DNA of 64,000 nt from positions 5,582 to 69,581 of the forward strand of contig JBAZBK010000001.1 of assembly GCA_041671505.1 (NCBI GenBank). Direction: 5' to 3'. A program made the position numbers and the translations under genes. The stretch comes from Thermoanaerobaculia bacterium (GTDB lineage: Bacteria > Acidobacteriota > Thermoanaerobaculia > Gp7-AA8). The number at the start of each line of letters is the position of its first letter. Position 1 is the first letter of the stretch. Positions 11,288-58,271 of the stretch are shown here, piece by piece. A model generated the notes under the pieces. That model saw only the letters and a list, made by a program, of their open reading frames with translations. It was not told where the DNA came from and searched no databases.

Positions 11288-11432
11288 TGTCATCCCGAGC
11301 GAAGCGAGGGATCTGCTTCAGACCCCACTGACCGCTTCCTCAACAAGAGTCACGGCCATTCGGGCCTGTTCTCGCTGAGGAGTCGGTCAATTCACCCTTC
11401 TTGCAGATTCCTCGCTGCGCTCGGAATGACAC
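11288..11432. repeat. MITE-like palindromic element (short variant of the TGTCATCCCGA-terminus family) inside the operon, between the desaturase and NTF2 genes
   Basis: Terminal inverted repeats TGTCATCCCGAGCGAAGCGAGG (11288-) and CCTCGCTGCGCTCGGAATGACA (-11432). The termini match those of the 160-bp elements at 27954, 47756 and 48522. Confidence 0.4.
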
Positions 11433-15478: not shown

Positions 15479-15937
15479 ATGCGCAGAGCACCCCGACCCA
15501 CCCTCGAAATGAGCGACGCCCGGCAGCAGGGGCTCTTCAACATCGGCGAGGCCTCCGACGCCTCGGGTGTCAGCGCGAAGATGATCCGGCACTACGAGTC
15601 GATCGGGGTGATCCCGCCCGCAGACCGTACGTTCTCCAACTATCGCGTCTATTCGAGGAACGACGTCCACACCCTCCAGTTCGTCCGCCGTGCCCGCGAC
15701 CTCGGGTTTTCGATGAAACAGATTCAGGAGCTGTTAGGGCTCTGGCAGGGGCACAAGAGCAGCCGCGAGGTGCGCAAGGTCGCGCTTTCGCACGTCGCCG
15801 AGCTCGACGAGAAGATCCGTGAGATGGAGGCGATGAAGCGGACGCTCGAAACGCTCGCCTCGCACTGCCACGGCGACGACCGTCCCGAATGCCCGATCCT
15901 GGACGATCTGGCGGGAGAGGCAGGCGAGAGGCGATAG
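15479..15937 (+). CDS. cueR: MerR-family Cu(I)-responsive transcriptional regulator
   Basis: MerR HTH (GEASDASGVSAKMIRHYESIG) and a C-terminal CHGDDRPEC metal-binding loop as in CueR/HmrR. GAAGGAG Shine-Dalgarno 7 nt before the ATG at 15479. Confidence 0.85.
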   Translation: MRRAPRPTLEMSDARQQGLFNIGEASDASGVSAKMIRHYESIGVIPPADRTFSNYRVYSRNDVHTLQFVRRARDLGFSMKQIQELLGLWQGHKSSREVRKVALSHVAELDEKIREMEAMKRTLETLASHCHGDDRPECPILDDLAGEAGERR

Positions 15938-16095
15938 GCGAGAGGCGAAGAGCGGGCGTGTGGAGTGCGAAAGCGGAGCTTTCGCACTCCACATCACAAT
16001 GCCTCTCTGCCGGCTCTCGCCTCTCGCCTCTCGCCTCATCGCCTCATCGCCTCATCGCCTCATCGCCTCATCGCCTCATATCCTCACATTCCTCA
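15915..16095. repeat. GC-rich repeat region: CGCCTCT/CGCCTCAT heptamer-octamer tandem arrays flanking a perfect 14-bp-stem hairpin (15961-15991)
   Basis: tggagtgcgaaagc gga gctttcgcactcca, then (ctctcgc)x3 (ctcatcgc)x5. Lies between the convergent cueR and copA genes. Related copies occur at 26280-26580, 49717-50048 and as fragments elsewhere. Confidence 0.6.
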
Positions 16096-20360: not shown

Positions 20361-20461
20361 GGCTGAAGTCAGAACGTAGAACGATGAATGTTGAACCCAG
20401 AAATGGATCCACGGCGCGTTTCTGGGTTCTCAATTCATCGTTCTACGTTCTAACTTCAGGC
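20361..20461. repeat. MITE-like 100-bp palindromic element, family A (GAAGTYAGAACG...)
   Basis: Arms gctgaagtcagaacgtagaacgatgaatgttgaacccagaaa and its near-perfect reverse complement around tggatccacggcgcg. A second copy is at 53743-53846. Confidence 0.6.
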
Positions 20462-20749: not shown

Positions 20750-20900
20750 TCGCGAAATTCGGACTTGAGGAGCAGGCGAGAGGCGAAGGGCGATAGGCGA
20801 GAGCAAGCAGATTCGGATGTTCGACGGTACGCGGTGGCGGCGGCGAGATCGACAGCTGAGGGGGTGCTTATCGCCTCTCGCCCATCGCCTCTCGCCCGCC
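20750..20900. repeat. GGCGAGAGGCGA / TCGCCTCTCGCC degenerate heptamer arrays (fragments of the GC-rich repeat family)
   Basis: aggcgagaggcgaagggcgataggcgagag at 20760 and cgcctctcgcccatcgcctctcgccc at 20865. Both lie in a 440-bp non-coding stretch upstream of tRNA-Thr. Confidence 0.4.
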
Positions 20901-27771: not shown

Positions 27772-27953
27772 CTGGATGCTCCCTCTGGCTGAAATCGTTC
27801 GGTCGGTCCCGGCCGGAAGCGCCGGCGGAACGGCGCATTCTCCACCGGATCGCCCGGCGTTCCCTATGCTCCCTCAACCATCGCCTCGTGATCGGCGTCA
27901 CCGGAAGGTGAGCCGATTCGTCGGCGGTGGGGCCATCCGGAGCGCGCACGACC

Positions 27954-28118
27954 TGTCATCCCGACGACCGATCCCGCGCAGCGGGAGCGGAAGGAGGGAC
28001 CTCGCAGGCTGGTACATATGGTGTACTTCTCCACCGCCGTCGCCCGTGGCACGTCAGTACCAGCCTGCGAGGTCCCTCCTCCTTCCCCCGCTTCGCGTGG
28101 TCAGTCGTCGGGACGACA
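27954..28118. repeat. MITE-like 165-bp palindromic element, family C (TGTCATCCCGACGA ... GCAGGCTGGTACA ...)
   Basis: Left arm ctgtcatcccgacgaccgatcccgcgcagcgggagcggaaggagggacctcgcaggctggtac; right arm gtaccagcctgcgaggtccctcctccttcccccgcttcgcgtggtcagtcgtcgggacgaca. Highly similar copies are at 47756 and 48522. Confidence 0.6.
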
Positions 28119-28392
28119 ATTCGCTCGGAGGTTGCCAGATATAGCCAGCTTCCTGGAAACGACACGCTGAAGGCCCTCTCTCCGCCCGCACGTCCGCCTT
28201 CCAGCTCTCTCGCACCCCTTTCTCTCCCCGCGTTCACCGAATCTCGACACCGTTCGAAATCCCGGCGCGGGGGACGCTGTTCGAAACCTCGGAATCCGAA
28301 TCGAGTCTCATCGGATGACGGGGGTGCGCGGCGCGCGGCGACGCGTGTGCGCGGTGCTCCCGGGGAATTCGCAGTGGAAGGAAGCCGATCGA

Positions 28393-29121
28393 ATGTTCGA
28401 CCGTAAGTTCTTCGCCGAGGGTGCCGCGATCGTCGTTCTCGCGGTGCTCTGCGCAGCTGTCTCCAATTTCGCCGCCGCGAGAGAGCGTAAAGTCGCGCTC
28501 GTTGGAAGCTACCCGCGCGCACTTCAGGTACCCGCGACGGTGACCGACCCCGCGCCCGAGGCGGCGACGACGGCGGTTGCCGTGACGGACACGGCTTCGG
28601 CGACGACGACGGAAACCACGACGGCGACGGAGTCCGCCACGACAACGACGACGCCGACCGCGACGGCGACGGAAACGATGACGCCGCCATCAACGACGAC
28701 ACACGCACCGACCGCTCAAGTGAAACTCCCGGCCGGCGTTCCGGTGCCACCGAAACCGCGAAAAGTCTTCCTCCCCCATCCCGACAAGGCGTTCGTCGAG
28801 ATCAGCAGCGAAGACGCCATGCAGCTCTGGCACGAGAAGGCGATCTTCATCGACGCCCGCCGCACCGACGTCTTCGCACAGGGGCACATCGCAGGCTCAC
28901 GCTCGATGCCGGTATGGGAAGCCGACATCGACGACCGCATCCGCGCCTTCTTCGACGAAGTCACCAACCAGCAGCAGCCGATCATCGTCTACTGCTCCGG
29001 AGGCAACTGCGAAGACTCGCACATGCTCGCCGACAAGCTCTGGGGCGTCGGCTACGAAAACGTTCTCGTCTACGCCGACGGCTTCCCCGCGTGGCAGAAG
29101 ATGGGGGGAGCTGTCGAGTAG
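28393..29121 (+). CDS. membrane-anchored rhodanese-domain sulfurtransferase with Thr/Ala-rich linker
   Basis: Start at 28393 (MFDRKFFAEGAAIVVLAVL is a TM anchor) with a GGAAGGAAG Shine-Dalgarno. Contains a low-complexity T/A linker and a rhodanese domain with active-site YCSGGNCEDS. Confidence 0.75.
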   Translation: MFDRKFFAEGAAIVVLAVLCAAVSNFAAARERKVALVGSYPRALQVPATVTDPAPEAATTAVAVTDTASATTTETTTATESATTTTTPTATATETMTPPSTTTHAPTAQVKLPAGVPVPPKPRKVFLPHPDKAFVEISSEDAMQLWHEKAIFIDARRTDVFAQGHIAGSRSMPVWEADIDDRIRAFFDEVTNQQQPIIVYCSGGNCEDSHMLADKLWGVGYENVLVYADGFPAWQKMGGAVE

Positions 29122-29348
29122 GCAATGCGGAATTCGGAATGCGGAGTGCGGAATGAAGGCTCGATTTCCGCCGCTGCGCCGACACCGCAATGAAGAATGG
29201 AGAATGTCGAATGAAGAATGAAGAAGCAAGAACCGCGCAAGGGTGCGGCGAGTCCACGACTCGGGCCGTTTCTCAATTCTTCATTCCTCATTCTTCATTC
29301 GACATTTCGGTTTGCCATTCCGCAATCCGCATTCCGCAATCCGCATTG
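29122..29348. repeat. MITE-like nested palindrome, family B (arms built from GAATG / AAGAATG tandem repeats)
   Basis: Outer arms gcaatgcggaattcggaatgcggagtgcggaatgaagg and its reverse complement; inner arms caatgaagaatggagaatgtcgaatgaagaatgaagaag and cttcattcctcattcttcattcgacatttcg. A second copy is at 58051. Confidence 0.6.
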
Positions 29349-35867: not shown

Positions 35868-36101
35868 GCCATCATACCGGCGCGAGCCGGATCAGCACTC
35901 GAGCGGCGGCAGACATTCGGCTGAACGCCTGCTTTACTGCCTTCTCAATTCAACGCTCTAGCTTTCAGCTTCAGCTTCTCCTCCGTCAGTTCGAGGCCAT
36001 TCGGTGTGACCCCAGCCCCGCTCGTCACTCCCGCACGGGGCGAACGTCACTCACATCGCCCTTCCTGCGGGACTACCGTTGATGACCTCAGGGAGGATCC
36101 G

Positions 36102-47755: not shown

Positions 47756-47915
47756 TGTCATCCCGACGATCCCACGTAGCGGGAGAGGAGGGACCTTGCA
47801 GGCTGGTACAGATGAGATCTCCTGCCGGATCATTCCGCGCCCGTGGCACGTCTGTACCAGCCTGAGAGATCCCTCGTCGCGCCCCCGCTTCGCAGGGTCG
47901 CTTCTCGGGATGACA
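47756..47915. repeat. MITE-like palindromic element, family C copy 2
   Basis: cttgtcatcccgacgatcccacgtagcgggagaggagggaccttgcaggctggtacagatg...gtaccagcctgagagatccctcgtcgcgcccccgcttcgcagggtcgcttctcgggatgaca. It fills the convergent gap between the GGDEF gene and the L,D-transpeptidase gene. Confidence 0.6.
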
Positions 47916-47922
47916 CTACGCG

Positions 47923-48441
47923 TCACGGCCTGATCTCGATCGCGGTGCCGTCGCCGACGGCGCGCCAGATCTCCTCGATTTCCTCGTTGGTCACCGCGAT
48001 GCAGCCGAGCGTCCAATCGCTGGCGACGTGCTCTGCGCCGAGCCAGCCCATCCCGTTAGGCAGCCCGTGGATCATGATCGCGCCGCCCGGGTCGACGCCG
48101 CGCCGCGCCGCCTCCCGACGGTCGCGCGCGCTCGGGTAGGAGACGTGGAGCGAGCGGTGGTAGGAGCTCTTCGCGTTCCTCCAGTCGATCACGTAGCGCC
48201 CTTCGGGAGTCTTCCCGTCCCCTGCCTGCCGCTTGTGCCCGTCGGGATCGGGGCCGAGCGCGACGCGGTAGGCGCGAAGCTCCCGTCCTCGCCGGAAGAG
48301 CGTGAGGCGGCGCTCGCTCTTGTCGACGACGACGACGTCAGCGCGCGTCCCGGCGGGAAGAGGGGCGCGCGGAGCGTCCCCGAGGGCGCCGAGTGCGAGG
48401 AGCAAATGCAGCGGCAAAGTGAGCACGAGGGAAGTGCGCAT
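47923..48441 (-). CDS. L,D-transpeptidase (YkuD domain) with signal peptide
   Basis: Start at 48441 (MRTSLVLTLPLHLLLALGALG) and catalytic HGxxxxxxxG...SDWTLGCIAV motif. The upstream part of the listed ORF is a translation of the family-C repeat. Confidence 0.8.
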   Translation of the reverse strand: MRTSLVLTLPLHLLLALGALGDAPRAPLPAGTRADVVVVDKSERRLTLFRRGRELRAYRVALGPDPDGHKRQAGDGKTPEGRYVIDWRNAKSSYHRSLHVSYPSARDRREAARRGVDPGGAIMIHGLPNGMGWLGAEHVASDWTLGCIAVTNEEIEEIWRAVGDGTAIEIRP

Positions 48442-48521
48442 GAAAATTGGACGCGGGAACGGGGTGGAAGGAAACTGCGGGGTAGCGCCGATCAGCAGTT
48501 CCCGCGAACGCCCGTACGAGC

Positions 48522-48680
48522 TGTCATCCCGACGATCCGGCGCAGCCGGTGAGGAGGGATCTCGCAGGCTGGTACATATGAAGTCTTCCGCCCGAAAGCT
48601 CGCGACCGTTGCACGTCTGTACCAGCCTGCGAGGTCCCTCCTTCCTCCCCCGCTTCGCGGGGTCGGTCGTCGGGACGACA
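48522..48680. repeat. MITE-like palindromic element, family C copy 3
   Basis: ctgtcatcccgacgatccggcgcagccggtgaggagggatctcgcaggctggtacatatg...gtaccagcctgcgaggtccctccttcctcccccgcttcgcggggtcggtcgtcgggacgaca. It lies in the divergent region between the L,D-transpeptidase gene and the fur-like gene. Confidence 0.6.
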
Positions 48681-48743
48681 AGACCTGCGGGCCGCCCTCT
48701 CCACCGGAATACATCTCACATTAGAACCGTTCCAAATCGAGAC

Positions 48744-49154
48744 ATGGCACAGAAGCTCATGGCGCTGCTTTCCGGACACGGCGTTCAGCCGTCGGCGCAG
48801 CGTGCCGCGGTGGCGAAGTACGTTCTCGCCACCGACGAGCATCCGACGGCCGACCGCGTCTTCAGCGTGGTGCGCGAATCGTTCCCATGGATCTCGCGGG
48901 CGACCGTCTACAACACGCTCAACCTGTTCGTCGAGAAGGGGCTGCTGCGCCAGCAGGCGCTGACGCAGGGAAGCGTCGTCTACGATCCGAACACGGCGAG
49001 GCACCATCACTTCATCGACGAGACGACCGGCGCGATCCACGATGTCCCGTGGGAAAGCGTCGAGGTCTGCAACATCGAGGCGCTCGAAGGGTTCGACGTC
49101 ACTGACTACCAGGTCGTGATGCGCGGCAGGAAGCGCCGTCGCCGCCGCTCATGA
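48744..49154 (+). CDS. Fur-family transcriptional regulator (Fur/PerR-like)
   Basis: Start at 48744 (MAQKLMALL). Contains the Fur winged-helix and HHHF motifs, and CNIEALEGF. Confidence 0.85.
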
Positions 49155-49218: not shown

Positions 49219-49716
49219 ATGGCAACCAAAGCGAAAGGAATCACCGCGATGCCGATCGACATCGGCATCTCCCAGGCCAACCGCAAGGCGATCGCGAAGG
49301 GGCTCTCCCACCTCCTCGCCGACACCTACACGCTTTACCTGAAGACGCACAACTTCCACTGGAACGTCACGGGGCCGATGTTCAACACGCTCCACCTGAT
49401 GTTCGAGGCGCAGTACAACGAGCTCGCTCTCGCGGTCGACTTGATCGCCGAGCGGATCCGGGCGCTCGGTTTCCCCGCGCCGGGAACCTACAAGGAGTAC
49501 GCGCGCCTCTCGTCAATCAAGGAAGACGACGGCGTGCCGTCCGCGGACGAGATGATCCGCAAGCTCATCGAGGGACAGGAAGCGGTCGTCCGCACCGCGC
49601 GCTCGATCTTCCCCGTCGTGAACGACGCCAACGACCAGGCGACCGCCGACCTGCTGACGCAGCGGATGAACATTCACGAGAAGACGGGCTGGATGCTGCG
49701 AAGTCTGCTGGGGTAA
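49219..49716 (+). CDS. dps: Dps (DNA-binding ferritin-like protein)
   Basis: Ferroxidase-centre residues in [12 protein letters not shown]...[11 protein letters not shown]. Confidence 0.9.
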
Positions 49717-50048
49717 GGCAGGCGAAAGGCGAGAGGCGATAGCAGGCAAAGGCCAGAGGCCAAAGCAGGCAGCAGTTCGCTGTGGACCGAACGGTTCCCA
49801 CGCGATGCCAGGAATCGTCAAGGGGCGCGGTGTACCGCGCCCCTTTTGTCTTGCCTGCGATTCCTGATTGAACGCAAACACGGCCGATCGCAGTCGCGCA
49901 CTGCACAGCGCTAATGAAGCGCGCCACGCATCACGTCACACCGCGGCAGCACGATGCGGCGCTTTGCGCCGCCGCGAAAGCTCCGCTTTCGCACTCCACA
50001 CGCTACCCTGCCTGCTCCTCGCCTCTCGCCTCTCGCCTTTCGCCTGCC
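49717..50048. repeat. GC-rich repeat region (GGCGAGAGGCGA-type heptamer arrays plus a GCGAAAGC...GCTTTCGCACTCCACA hairpin)
   Basis: aggcaggcgaaaggcgagaggcgatagcaggcaaaggccagaggccaaagcaggcagc at 49720; ...gcgaaagctccgctttcgcactccacacgc at 49975; cctcgcctctcgcctctcgcctttcgcctgcc at 50010. Confidence 0.5.
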
Positions 50049-50536: not shown

Positions 50537-50655
50537 GAATTGAGAATTGAGAATTGAGAATTGAGAGATGGCGGGAATCTTGGTTGTGAAACGGGGCACA
50601 AGAGAGGGTGCTACCCGATCACCATCTCTCAATTCTCAATTCTTAATTCTCAATG
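50537..50655. repeat. palindromic element with arms made of (GAATTGA)n / (TCAATTC)n tandem heptamers
   Basis: gaattgagaattgagaattgagaattgagagatgg - 48-bp GC-rich core - ccatctctcaattctcaattcttaattctcaat. Confidence 0.5.
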
Positions 50656-50665
50656 TGCTTCACCA

Positions 50666-52856: not shown

Positions 52857-53035
52857 TTGTTAGTTGTTAGTTGTTAGTTAGAAAAGTCAGTCAAGGAGAA
52901 AAACCAGAGAAGAGTGAAGAGTTGGGGAGGAGATCCATGCAACTCTTCTCTCTTCATTTTTCTCTCTTCTCTCTTCTCTCTTCACTCTTCTCTCTTCCCT
53001 CGCCTCATCGCCTCTCGCCTCTCGCCTCATCGCCT
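52851..53035. repeat. composite low-complexity element: (GTTAGTT)x3, an AGAGAAG/CTTCTCT-armed palindrome, then CGCCTCAT/CGCCTCT heptamers
   Basis: gttgttagttgttagttgttagttag ... agagaagagtgaagagttg gggaggagatccatg caactcttctctcttcatttttctctcttctctcttctctcttcactcttctctcttccctcgcctcatcgcctctcgcctctcgcctcatcgcctc. Confidence 0.45.
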
Positions 53036-53072
53036 CAAGGGCGTAGAATCCTCGAAACACGGAGATCCACGA

Positions 53073-53699: not shown

Positions 53700-53742
53700 G
53701 CACGCCGAGCGCCCCATTACCGCGGGACCGCGCCATTCACTT

Positions 53743-53846
53743 GAAGTTAGAACGGTGAACGATGAATTGAGAATCCAGAAGCAAGACGTTTTCGCCGTTT
53801 CTTCTTTCCAGGTTCTCACTTCATCGTTCAACGTTCTAACTTCGAA
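53743..53846. repeat. MITE-like 100-bp palindromic element, family A copy 2
   Basis: gaagttagaacggtgaacgatgaattgagaatccagaag ... cttctttccaggttctcacttcatcgttcaacgttctaacttcg. The arms are about 85% identical to the copy at 20361. Confidence 0.6.
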
Positions 53847-53944
53847 CGACTCGCGCGAAGCCACCGATCGCCTCATACGCGCGCGCGTAACCCCCGCCAG
53901 AATCCATAACCCCATCGCCTTCCGTCGATTACAATCGTTGCCTA

Positions 53945-58048: not shown

Positions 58049-58050
58049 AG

Positions 58051-58195
58051 CATTTCGGATTGCGGATTTCGGAATGAAAGGCAAGCGGCAAAACCGAAAT
58101 GAAGAATGTCGAATGGAGAATGATGAATGTAGAAGAGGACAAGGCCCTGTTTCAATTCTCCATTCTTCATTCCTCATTCGACATTCTTCATTTCG
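58051..58195. repeat. MITE-like element, family B copy 2 (GAATGAAGAATG arms)
   Basis: gcatttcggattgcggatttcggaatgaaagg ... gaaatgaagaatgtcgaatggagaatgatgaatg ... caattctccattcttcattcctcattcgacattcttcatttcg. Shares 30-40-bp blocks with the element at 29122. Confidence 0.55.
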
Positions 58196-58271
58196 AAGTC
58201 CGATCGGCGACGCACCTCACGAATCGTCGCTCCTGGAACTAGATCCTCCTTCCTGATCGTTTCCCCTCCCG

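Follow-up and report, generated by a model that had tools for sequence, protein, structure and literature searches.

Family C, a dispersed palindromic repeat of probable REPIN-like construction in a Thermoanaerobaculia genome

Here we report Family C, a family of short non-coding palindromic elements found in a 64,000-nt stretch of DNA from a Thermoanaerobaculia bacterium (phylum Acidobacteriota; GenBank assembly GCA_041671505.1, contig JBAZBK010000001.1, positions 5,582 to 69,581). The whole of this stretch, which has a G + C content of 66%, is referred to as the window. Copies of Family C are insertions relative to orthologous loci in related genomes and are not accompanied by a target-site duplication. 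Every complete copy consists of two inverted units with a TGTC tag that surround an inner inverted repeat and a core. The family is a variant of the repetitive extragenic palindromic (REP) kind of repeat and of the REP doublets forming hairpins (REPINs), from a phylum for which few descriptions of such repeats exist. On balance, Family C is probably a non-autonomous dispersed palindromic repeat that is built like a REPIN and is moved without duplication of its target.

Structure of the elements

A preliminary description of the window had placed elements of this family at positions 27954, 47756, 48522 and 11288. All four are present in the sequence, and the termini (TGTCATCCCGACGA and TCGTCGGGAYGACA) and the inner pair (GCAGGCTGGTAC and GTACCAGCCTG) given for the copies were found in them. 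The elements are as follows.

27954..28118, plus strand: copy 1, 165 nt; left arm 27954-28015, core 28016-28056, right arm 28057-28118
47756..47915, plus strand: copy 2, 160 nt; left arm 47756-47809, core 47810-47853, right arm 47854-47915
48522..48680, plus strand: copy 3, 159 nt; left arm 48522-48575, core 48576-48618, right arm 48619-48680
11288..11431, no strand assigned: short relative, 144 nt; same TGTC-tagged stem-loop termini, different inner repeat and core

Copies 1-3 had been called near-identical; they are clearly related and can be aligned over their full length, but their mean column identity is 84%. The right end of copy 2 departs from the consensus terminus (TTCTCGGGATGACA). 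In a scan of the window, the 14-mer terminus occurred six times at up to two mismatches, each time as an end of copies 1-3. The predicted RNA fold energies of copies 1, 2 and 3 are -116.6, -96.9 and -99.3 kcal/mol (z-scores of -12.5, -8.3 and -9.2), which none of 200 dinucleotide shuffles equalled. The short relative is a nested palindrome as well (-80 kcal/mol, z-score -8.1). Its inverted termini of 29 nt (TGTCATYCCGAGCGMAGCGAGGRATCTGC), which read TGTC ATCCC GA GCGAAGC GA GGGAT CTGC, are the only part that it has in common with copies 1-3, and its inner inverted repeat is unlike theirs (ACTGACCG.TCCTCA...); this element is a sister family of Family C.

Read from the outside in, an arm of Family C consists of TGTC, RTCCY, GA-C-GA, an optional CC-GA layer, a mini-hairpin, a return strand (GA-GG and GA-G-GA), RGGAY and the tail CTCKCAGGCTGGTAC. 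The tag is unpaired, the closing stem (RTCCY/RGGAY) comprises 5 bp, and GA-C-GA faces GA-G-GA in tandem G.A mismatches. Across 29 arms the tag is TGTC in 27 and CGTC in 2, and in none is it GTAG; positions C8, G10 and A11 are invariant and form a C[CT]GA foot. The mini-hairpins are exchangeable (GCGAAGC, GAGCGAAGCGAG, TCCCGCGNAGCGGGA and CCCCGCGAAGCGGGG), have loops of mostly 3 nt (GAA, GCA), and often differ between the left and right arms of one element (as in the fetched loci L021, L016 and L002). The two arm tails pair as an inner inverted repeat around the core. This repeat is nearly invariant in sequence on each arm, and its single changes are mostly uncompensated; a sub-family copy (L004:6472-6597) carries three two-sided changes (CAGGGTTCTAC / GTAGAACCCGG). 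Examples of both structures in the window are given below.

27958..28002, plus strand: arm-local stem-loop in the left arm of copy 1, with RTCCY, GACGA, CCGA foot, TCCCGC-GCA-GCGGGA, GA-rich return strand and RGGAY
48565..48575, plus strand: inner inverted repeat CAGGCTGGTAC, with its partner GTACCAGCCTG at 48619-48629; nearly invariant on all family arms

The core (41-45 nt, consensus AGATGAAGTCTTCAGCCCGAGGATCGGGCGCCCGTTGCACGTGA) is variable, as had been noted, inasmuch as its mean pairwise identity is only about 53%, compared with a conservation of about 90% in the arms. It is nevertheless homologous in all copies and has a fixed orientation relative to the asymmetric arms, and all copies follow a single asymmetric plan when they are oriented by the core.

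Pairing within the arms is better conserved than pairing between them. The local closing stem, defined as columns 5-9 with 45-49 plus column 12 with 42, was tested on 29 arms; 97.4% of the cells were paired, and four of the six pairs had changed on both sides. Pair 5-49 is A-T in 17 and G-C in 7 of the 26 distinct arms, the second pair is T-A in 24 of the 26, and a switch from C-G to T-A is seen in pairs 7-47 and 9-45 as well. None of 500 shuffles reached the score of the local stem, and slid controls were at most 61% paired. At the variable positions, arm-to-arm pairing is broken or reduced to a wobble (A.C or G.T) in 5 of 13 elements, so that local pairing amounts to 126 of 130 and inter-arm pairing to 120 of 130, with every difference at a variable position. 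Copy 3 contains a compensated mini-hairpin (TCCGGC/GCCGGT) without a counterpart in the partner arm, and local hairpins are then preferred in the fold of minimum energy. Because the termini differ from arm to arm yet the local stems covary, and because the mini-hairpin of copy 3 is compensated, the constrained unit is the single arm, which is a REP-like stem-loop; the 160-nt hairpin follows from the inversion of two such units.

Insertion sites, gene context and distribution

The gene order fur, L,D-transpeptidase, GGDEF is kept in several relatives (L005, L007-L009 and L011-L012), whose L,D-transpeptidases are 77% (L005), 72% (L007-L009) and 90% (L011-L012) identical to that of the window. 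The spacer between the GGDEF and L,D-transpeptidase genes measures 10 nt in L005, 12 nt in L007 and 16 nt in L011, compared with 175 nt in the window, where 8 nt, the 160 nt of copy 2 and 7 nt follow one another. As the two flanks add up to 15 nt and the spacer of L011 to 16 nt, the gain in length is the element itself, and no bases are duplicated. The empty site of L011 reads TGA-gggcgcgtctcgcgcg-TCA, compared with TGA-ggacgcct[element]ctacgcg-TCA in the window; it is a small hairpin (GCGCG-TCT-CGCGC), the loop of which is occupied by copy 2. The spacer between the fur and L,D-transpeptidase genes, which contains copy 3, is 302 nt long in the window and 107-108 nt in L005 and L007, and the insertion leaves the conserved promoter-proximal sequence by both start codons intact. 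The empty orthologous sites in three relatives support the earlier claim of mobility. For copy 1 no empty site was obtained, and the synteny upstream of the methionine-gamma-lyase gene differs in L027 and L028. The longest direct repeat at the junctions is only 0-2 nt among 13 copies.

In the closest relative (L011; JGI 3300044712), the fur/L,D-transpeptidase spacer, which is 443 nt long, is occupied at 1440-1800 by short hairpins that form another cluster (GGACCCGTSAGGGTCC, GCCGCGTGAGCGGC and GGCCCTCACGGGCC) and resemble S. usitatus hairpins listed for class-3 HuH-Y1 genes; none of this type is present in the window. This spacer looks like a hot spot for repeat insertion. In the empty spacer of L005 (3930-3960), the sequence ggccggCAGGCTGGTtccgg holds 9 nt identical to the inner repeat of the element, which is probably a coincidence.

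Read from the outside in, both flanks of the insertions carry a weak consensus, nCGnACGAGT, before the TGTC tag, in mutually inverted orientation; position -4 is G in 22 of 26 ends and position -5 is C in 17 of 26. The complementarity of the flanks (58/140) exceeds that of random window sites (mean of 38, with 1 of 5000 reaching 58). The idea that each copy lies in a target hairpin of its own was rejected; permuted partners give 57/140, which is like the observed value, and the flanks therefore share a consensus rather than individual target hairpins. Since the length of the spacer is unchanged at the site of copy 2, the comparison of that site suggests that the flanks are target sequence; alternatively, the consensus could represent degenerate ends of the element that reach a few bases further. 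Three metagenome contigs (L016, L020 and L021) have about 40 nt of one flank in common (GTTTCTTTCCTCGGGCGCAGCACCCGTGCTGTGGGCGGC) and differ in the other. Their copies bear differing combinations of arm mini-hairpins, a pattern that points either to a composite repeat of larger size or to arms that are remodelled rapidly in situ.

All window copies are located between genes, in agreement with the preliminary description. Copy 1 separates a rhodanese gene (28315-29121, plus strand) from a divergent methionine-gamma-lyase-like gene (start 27771, minus strand), copy 2 lies between the convergent stops of a Reg_prop/GGDEF gene (47747) and the L,D-transpeptidase (YkuD) gene (47923), and copy 3 between the divergent starts of the L,D-transpeptidase gene (48441) and the fur gene (48744). 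The 13 copies that could be located are all intergenic, and none is inside an open reading frame (ORF) with a high G + C content at third codon positions. The spurious ORFs that had been attributed to read-through of the elements (27927..28406, 47923..48714 and 48609..49154) exist and overrun the true starts as set by orthologues (172 aa and 136 aa). The characterization of Family C as a dispersed, non-coding, intergenic family with inverted termini that gives rise to spurious ORFs is thus well founded. The methionine-gamma-lyase-like protein of the window is 100% identical to protein P0122, which is encoded on a 413-kb contig of a Thermoanaerobaculia MAG. A Logan short-read contig that carries the identical gene (L030) stops within copy 1, as is expected because copy 1 is a repeat. 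About 110 nt upstream of the methionine-gamma-lyase-like gene are kept between the window (27772-27900) and a relative (L027:1100-1277; ggtgacgc..gatcacga.gcgatggttg...); this stretch, in which no Rfam family was found at gathering score, may be a leader or a regulatory element.

Further members were sought in several public collections. The pattern of the inner repeat matched 4 loci among 185,579 genomes, which are species representatives and do not include the source genome; two of the loci are in an Acidobacteria groundwater metagenome-assembled genome (MAG), one is in a Thermoanaerobaculia MAG, and one, an unrelated-looking palindrome, is in a 'delta proteobacterium' MAG. The pattern of a single arm matched 11 loci in JGI metagenomes, of which 8 are true members; the other three (L015, L017 and L022) are chance matches inside coding sequence and were rejected as members. 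One further copy, on a 391-kb contig, was found when a profile of the most commonly open frame through the element was compared with 5.8 billion proteins, and a regular-expression scan of the fetched loci recovered the second copy of L004 (6472-6597, the sub-family copy described above) and a homologue of the 11288 type (L001:1442-1584). Altogether, twelve further copies are located on unrelated contigs from other Acidobacteriota MAGs and metagenomes, and the total is 15 elements of the Family C type or the sister type, with a length of 124-165 nt and inverted termini of at least 14 nt. A BLASTN search of plasmid and phage collections with one copy matched nothing, and viral contigs scanned for the inner repeat gave 0 matches.

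The expectation of hundreds of copies genome-wide, which was extrapolated from three copies of which two flank one gene, is unsupported. The counts in public data (4 loci in 185,579 species genomes, 8 members in JGI metagenomes and 1 match in the protein database) do not suggest it. The family is real but rare in public data, and the only support for hundreds of copies is its local density in the window.

Several observations were made beside these members. Single TGTC-tagged stem-loops (e.g. TGTCATTCTGAGGGCC...GGCCCGAAGAATCTC) are present in IMG/VR contigs (L031:3479-3535 and 4454; L032:5913, 6157, 6239 and 8861; L033:7892 and 8853), several per predicted viral contig and all on the strand opposite to terminase/portal-like genes; an Rfam scan of these units gave no match. 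Because viral contigs carry such single stem-loops, the arm unit also occurs as a monomer outside Family C: the bacterial loci hold 15 inverted dimers, and the three viral contigs hold monomers only. The locus in the 'uncultured delta proteobacterium' MAG (L003:5812-5990; CAVVFZ010000019.1) has the identical inner pair (CAGGCTGGTAC/GTACCAGCCTG) within a very different outer palindrome (GTCACAGGGTCTTTTTTGCTGCCGCATCT), and the start of its core is partly alike (GAGGTCGTT..AGCCCAG). It may be a chance match or an inner module that moves between palindromes; about 2 chance matches to the 22-base gapped pattern are expected in 596 Gb, and the locus is a lead only. Beside the element of L014, a partial extra arm (ATCCCGACGACCGAGCGAATCGAGGAGT) and a partial second inner repeat and core are present (1-70 and 215-260), which may mean either that units are clustered here or that the repeat caused an artefact of assembly at the end of the contig. 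In L025 (9729-10013), an isochorismatase-like gene that ends 15 nt before the element looks internally truncated (about 95 aa vs about 180 aa) and may be a pseudogene; the truncation is not due to the element.

The window also contains other palindromic repeats. AT-rich palindromes that are distinct from Family C are located at 29111-29347, 58050-58200, 20364-20459 and 53742-53849, and also at 35931-35974 and 50620-50662; their arms are tandem 7-nt repeats, (GAATGNA)n facing (TNCATTC)n, with a GC-rich centre. They are intergenic, and one pair brackets a region beside a tRNA gene. A second family of heptamer-array palindromes (15915-16075, 20767-20900, 49713-50048, 52986-53037 and 2382-2415) follows the plan (GGCGAGA)n ... 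central hairpin ... (TCTCGCC)n(TCATCGCC)n, and the array at 15915-16075 surrounds GTGTGGAGTGCGAAAGCGGAGCTTTCGCACTCCACA.

Mode of movement and alternative explanations

If Family C is built and moved like a REPIN, its two REP-type stem-loop units, inverted around a spacer, would be recognized by a trans-acting enzyme that copies the element and leaves no duplication. The likeliest enzyme would be a single-strand-DNA transposase of the HuH-Y1 superfamily, of the type of the REP-associated tyrosine transposases (RAYT/TnpA(REP)), with the chemistry of which the lack of a target-site duplication fits. One candidate is the class-3 group of HuH-Y1 enzymes in Acidobacteria and Planctomycetes, since weak hairpins with a CnGA foot stand on either side of the genes of that group. 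The copies in the host are probably passengers, and their effects would be incidental; an example would be a large hairpin formed in the RNA where the convergent GGDEF and L,D-transpeptidase transcripts have their 3' ends.

A number of results weigh against this interpretation. Neither the window nor 202 kb of related loci yielded a HuH-Y1 or other transposase: phmmer searches with E. coli RayT (NC_000913.3) and an approximate IS608 TnpA query gave no match better than E = 2, a regular expression for ORFs with the HuH...Y signature found none in this DNA, and a Pfam scan of 53 window ORFs gave no transposase among the 25 of 72 families listed. RAYTs are known to cut GTAG, whereas the tag here is TGTC, and the inverted flank consensus (nCGnACGAGT|TGTC) is more in keeping with a double-strand target that is palindromic than with the one-sided target of IS200/IS605 elements. 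The family is rare in public data, and the window copies are only about 84% alike and do not by themselves show recent activity. Single arms fold weakly with DNA parameters (-2 to -13 kcal/mol, z-scores not significant); the stability of G.A pairs and of the GCGAAGC hairpin is, however, known to exceed what nearest-neighbour models predict. The long type of mini-hairpin is common to four of the seven G5/C49 arms, and part of the covariation could reflect linkage of arm 'haplotypes', or hairpin-templated correction or repair, rather than selection.

The elements had originally been termed MITE-like, i.e. compared with MITEs (miniature inverted-repeat transposable elements). In the classical sense this would make them deletion derivatives of a DDE-type insertion sequence (IS) with TGTCATCCCGA termini, whose transposase binds the TGTCATCCCGACGA terminal repeats and moves the elements by cut-and-paste. 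Family C has much of the appearance of MITEs, as it consists of small, non-coding elements in several dispersed copies, with long inverted termini that begin with TG and end with CA (typical of IS3/IS21/Mu-like elements), is polymorphic for presence and absence at orthologous sites, and has a symmetric flank consensus that suggests a palindromic double-strand target. A duplication is, however, absent from the only site for which an empty counterpart could be used (15 vs 16 nt) and from the 13 junctions, and the window, the 202 kb of fetched loci, and the plasmid and phage collections yielded no IS with these ends. The two termini vary independently of each other yet covary with the interior of their own arm, unlike a plain transposase-binding inverted repeat. 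The label MITE in its usual sense is not supported, as the arms are self-contained stem-loops and neither a target-site duplication nor, in the DNA covered, a cognate IS or transposase was found; we consider such an origin unlikely. An equally improbable explanation is that Family C is a DNA structure or protein-binding site maintained by the host and spread by recombination or gene conversion, comparable to the BIMEs or NIMEs that bind integration host factor (IHF), gyrase or recombinases. The mosaic, modular construction of the arms agrees with it (the copies with a common flank in L016, L020 and L021 differ in their mini-hairpins), and so do the inner repeat, which is kept as a sequence on each arm with mostly uncompensated single changes, the different repeat cluster in the spacer of L011, as at BIME/NIME hot spots, and the fact that CGTC-type repeats have been reported without a dedicated transposase (PMC3733652). 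Against it count the clean gain of 160 nt with an otherwise unchanged spacer length and the retention of the same oriented asymmetry of arms and core at unrelated loci in MAGs and metagenomes, which points to copying of the whole unit; also, there is no known binding protein.

The preliminary description had left open whether the family is non-autonomous and mobile or a structured RNA. The former part is borne out; the latter, according to which the elements would be small RNA genes or cis-acting elements of 5' or 3' untranslated regions (mRNA stabilizers or terminators) conserved for their function as RNA, is very unlikely. The predicted hairpins are certainly very stable, compensatory changes are present in the arm stems and in the inner stem of one copy, copy 2 sits precisely between two genes that converge, a place at which a hairpin could terminate the transcripts of both, and the single stem-loops of the three viral contigs are all on one strand. 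Yet Rfam gave only three tRNAs in the window at gathering score, and at permissive settings the best matches were sub-threshold noise from plant and animal miRNA hairpin models (34 bits vs a gathering score of 137). Scans around the copies revealed neither a consensus promoter nor a terminator consisting of a hairpin and a T-run. The core, which is the only strand-specific part, is the least conserved, and it is in the sense orientation in L004 and relative to the GGDEF gene and antisense in L001, L014, L019, L023 and L025; G.T mismatches between the arms (10 forward vs 12 reverse) likewise show no strand bias. Moreover, the element is absent from orthologous loci of relatives. As a side effect, it is plausible that read-through transcripts form a large hairpin, above all between the convergent genes.

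A more specific version of the REPIN-like reading, which we regard as speculative and rather doubtful, is that TGTC-tagged, CnGA-footed, G.A-rich stem-loops are single-stranded DNA substrates of the little-studied class-3 HuH-Y1 proteins of Acidobacteria and Planctomycetes, and that Family C is the analogue of a REPIN for these proteins. It would be a palindrome of three modules, which grows as stem-loops are inserted, one nested in another, into the tips of hairpins. It would explain the series of arm types S -> M -> C -> CC, the position of copy 2 in the loop of the GCGCG-TCT-CGCGC hairpin, and the reuse of the inner repeat in the unrelated palindrome of L003.

The elements give no sign of a new cellular function, and their relevance lies mainly in annotation and assembly. 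They create false ORFs, such as the Arg/Pro-rich N-terminal extensions of the L,D-transpeptidase and fur gene calls, and break short-read assemblies (L030 ends inside one), which makes masking advisable for annotators of Acidobacteriota MAGs. Family C also extends REP/REPIN-type repeats to Thermoanaerobaculia, with an unusual unit that combines a TGTC tag, tandem G.A pairs and GCGAAGC-type mini-hairpins.

Comparison with known repeat systems

Nothing relevant was found when the literature was searched for the terminal sequence in the form of text. Family C resembles bacterial MITEs (Correia/NEMIS, RUP, Nezha) in that these are 100-200 nt long, non-coding and intergenic, have terminal inverted repeats and give rise to spurious ORFs, but bacterial MITEs have target-site duplications and the termini of a parent IS, neither of which was seen here.

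REPINs are non-autonomous elements defined as two REPs inverted around a spacer (PMC3337134). Like the REPINs associated with RAYT or TnpA(REP) HuH-Y1 proteins (PMC3337134, PMC3116915), Family C consists of two short imperfect palindromes inverted around a spacer, and the whole can be folded as a hairpin; both are extragenic, non-coding and dispersed, lack a target-site duplication, and have units that are conserved above the spacer. Family C differs by having TGTC instead of the foot tetranucleotide GTAG / GT[AG]G, by its units of 40-60 nt with tandem G.A mismatches and nested mini-hairpins, by its additional conserved inner inverted repeat and oriented core, and in that no RAYT was found in the window and related loci. 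The described host range of REPINs does not include Acidobacteriota or Thermoanaerobaculia.

With a tag of TGTC rather than GTAG, the units of Family C are nearer to the CGTC-tagged REPs (Di Nocera et al. 2013, PMC3733652). The tag of these repeats, which include dRS3/NIME of Neisseria and RPE-4/RPE-6 of Rickettsia and for which no dedicated transposase has been reported, is often TGTC and may also be CCTC, and their stems of 8-9 bp start with A-T and T-A, enclose loops of 4-5 nt, and are followed by a CCA tail (PMC3733652). Both groups have an unpaired CGTC/TGTC tag at one end of the stem-loop, a stem that starts with A-T and T-A, and a predominance of inverted head-to-head dimers, as far as the consensus can be compared with the text, as opposed to the figures, of that paper (PMC3733652); Family C departs from it in its 5-bp stem with G.A mismatches and a variable inner hairpin, in its loops of mostly 3 nt, and in its CTC tail. 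The CGTC-tagged super-family is unreported in Acidobacteria. The 11288-type relative is similar to the NIME unit, a 90-nt segment with inverted dRS3-like repeats of about 25 nt on each side.

The genes of class-3 HuH-Y1 proteins occur in Planctomycetes, Acidobacteria and Proteobacteria and have weak hairpins, each with a 5' CnGA foot, on their flanks (PMC6006769); S. usitatus has about 600 copies of hairpins of this type (Quentin et al. 2018, PMC6006769). They share with the arms of Family C an occurrence in Acidobacteria, weak 'atypical' structures, and the foot (CnGA vs C[CT]GA here), and the published example CCGA GCCGC GA CT GTCA AG GA GCGGT (CCGAGCCGCGACTGTCAAGGAGCGGTTG) likewise alternates Watson-Crick blocks with G.A pairs. 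The sequences of stem and loop differ, and class-3 hairpins are single and 25-28 nt long, compared with composite palindromes of 160 nt. The resemblance, drawn by analogy, is a lead, and it makes Family C a concrete DNA candidate for testing against class-3 HuH-Y1 proteins.

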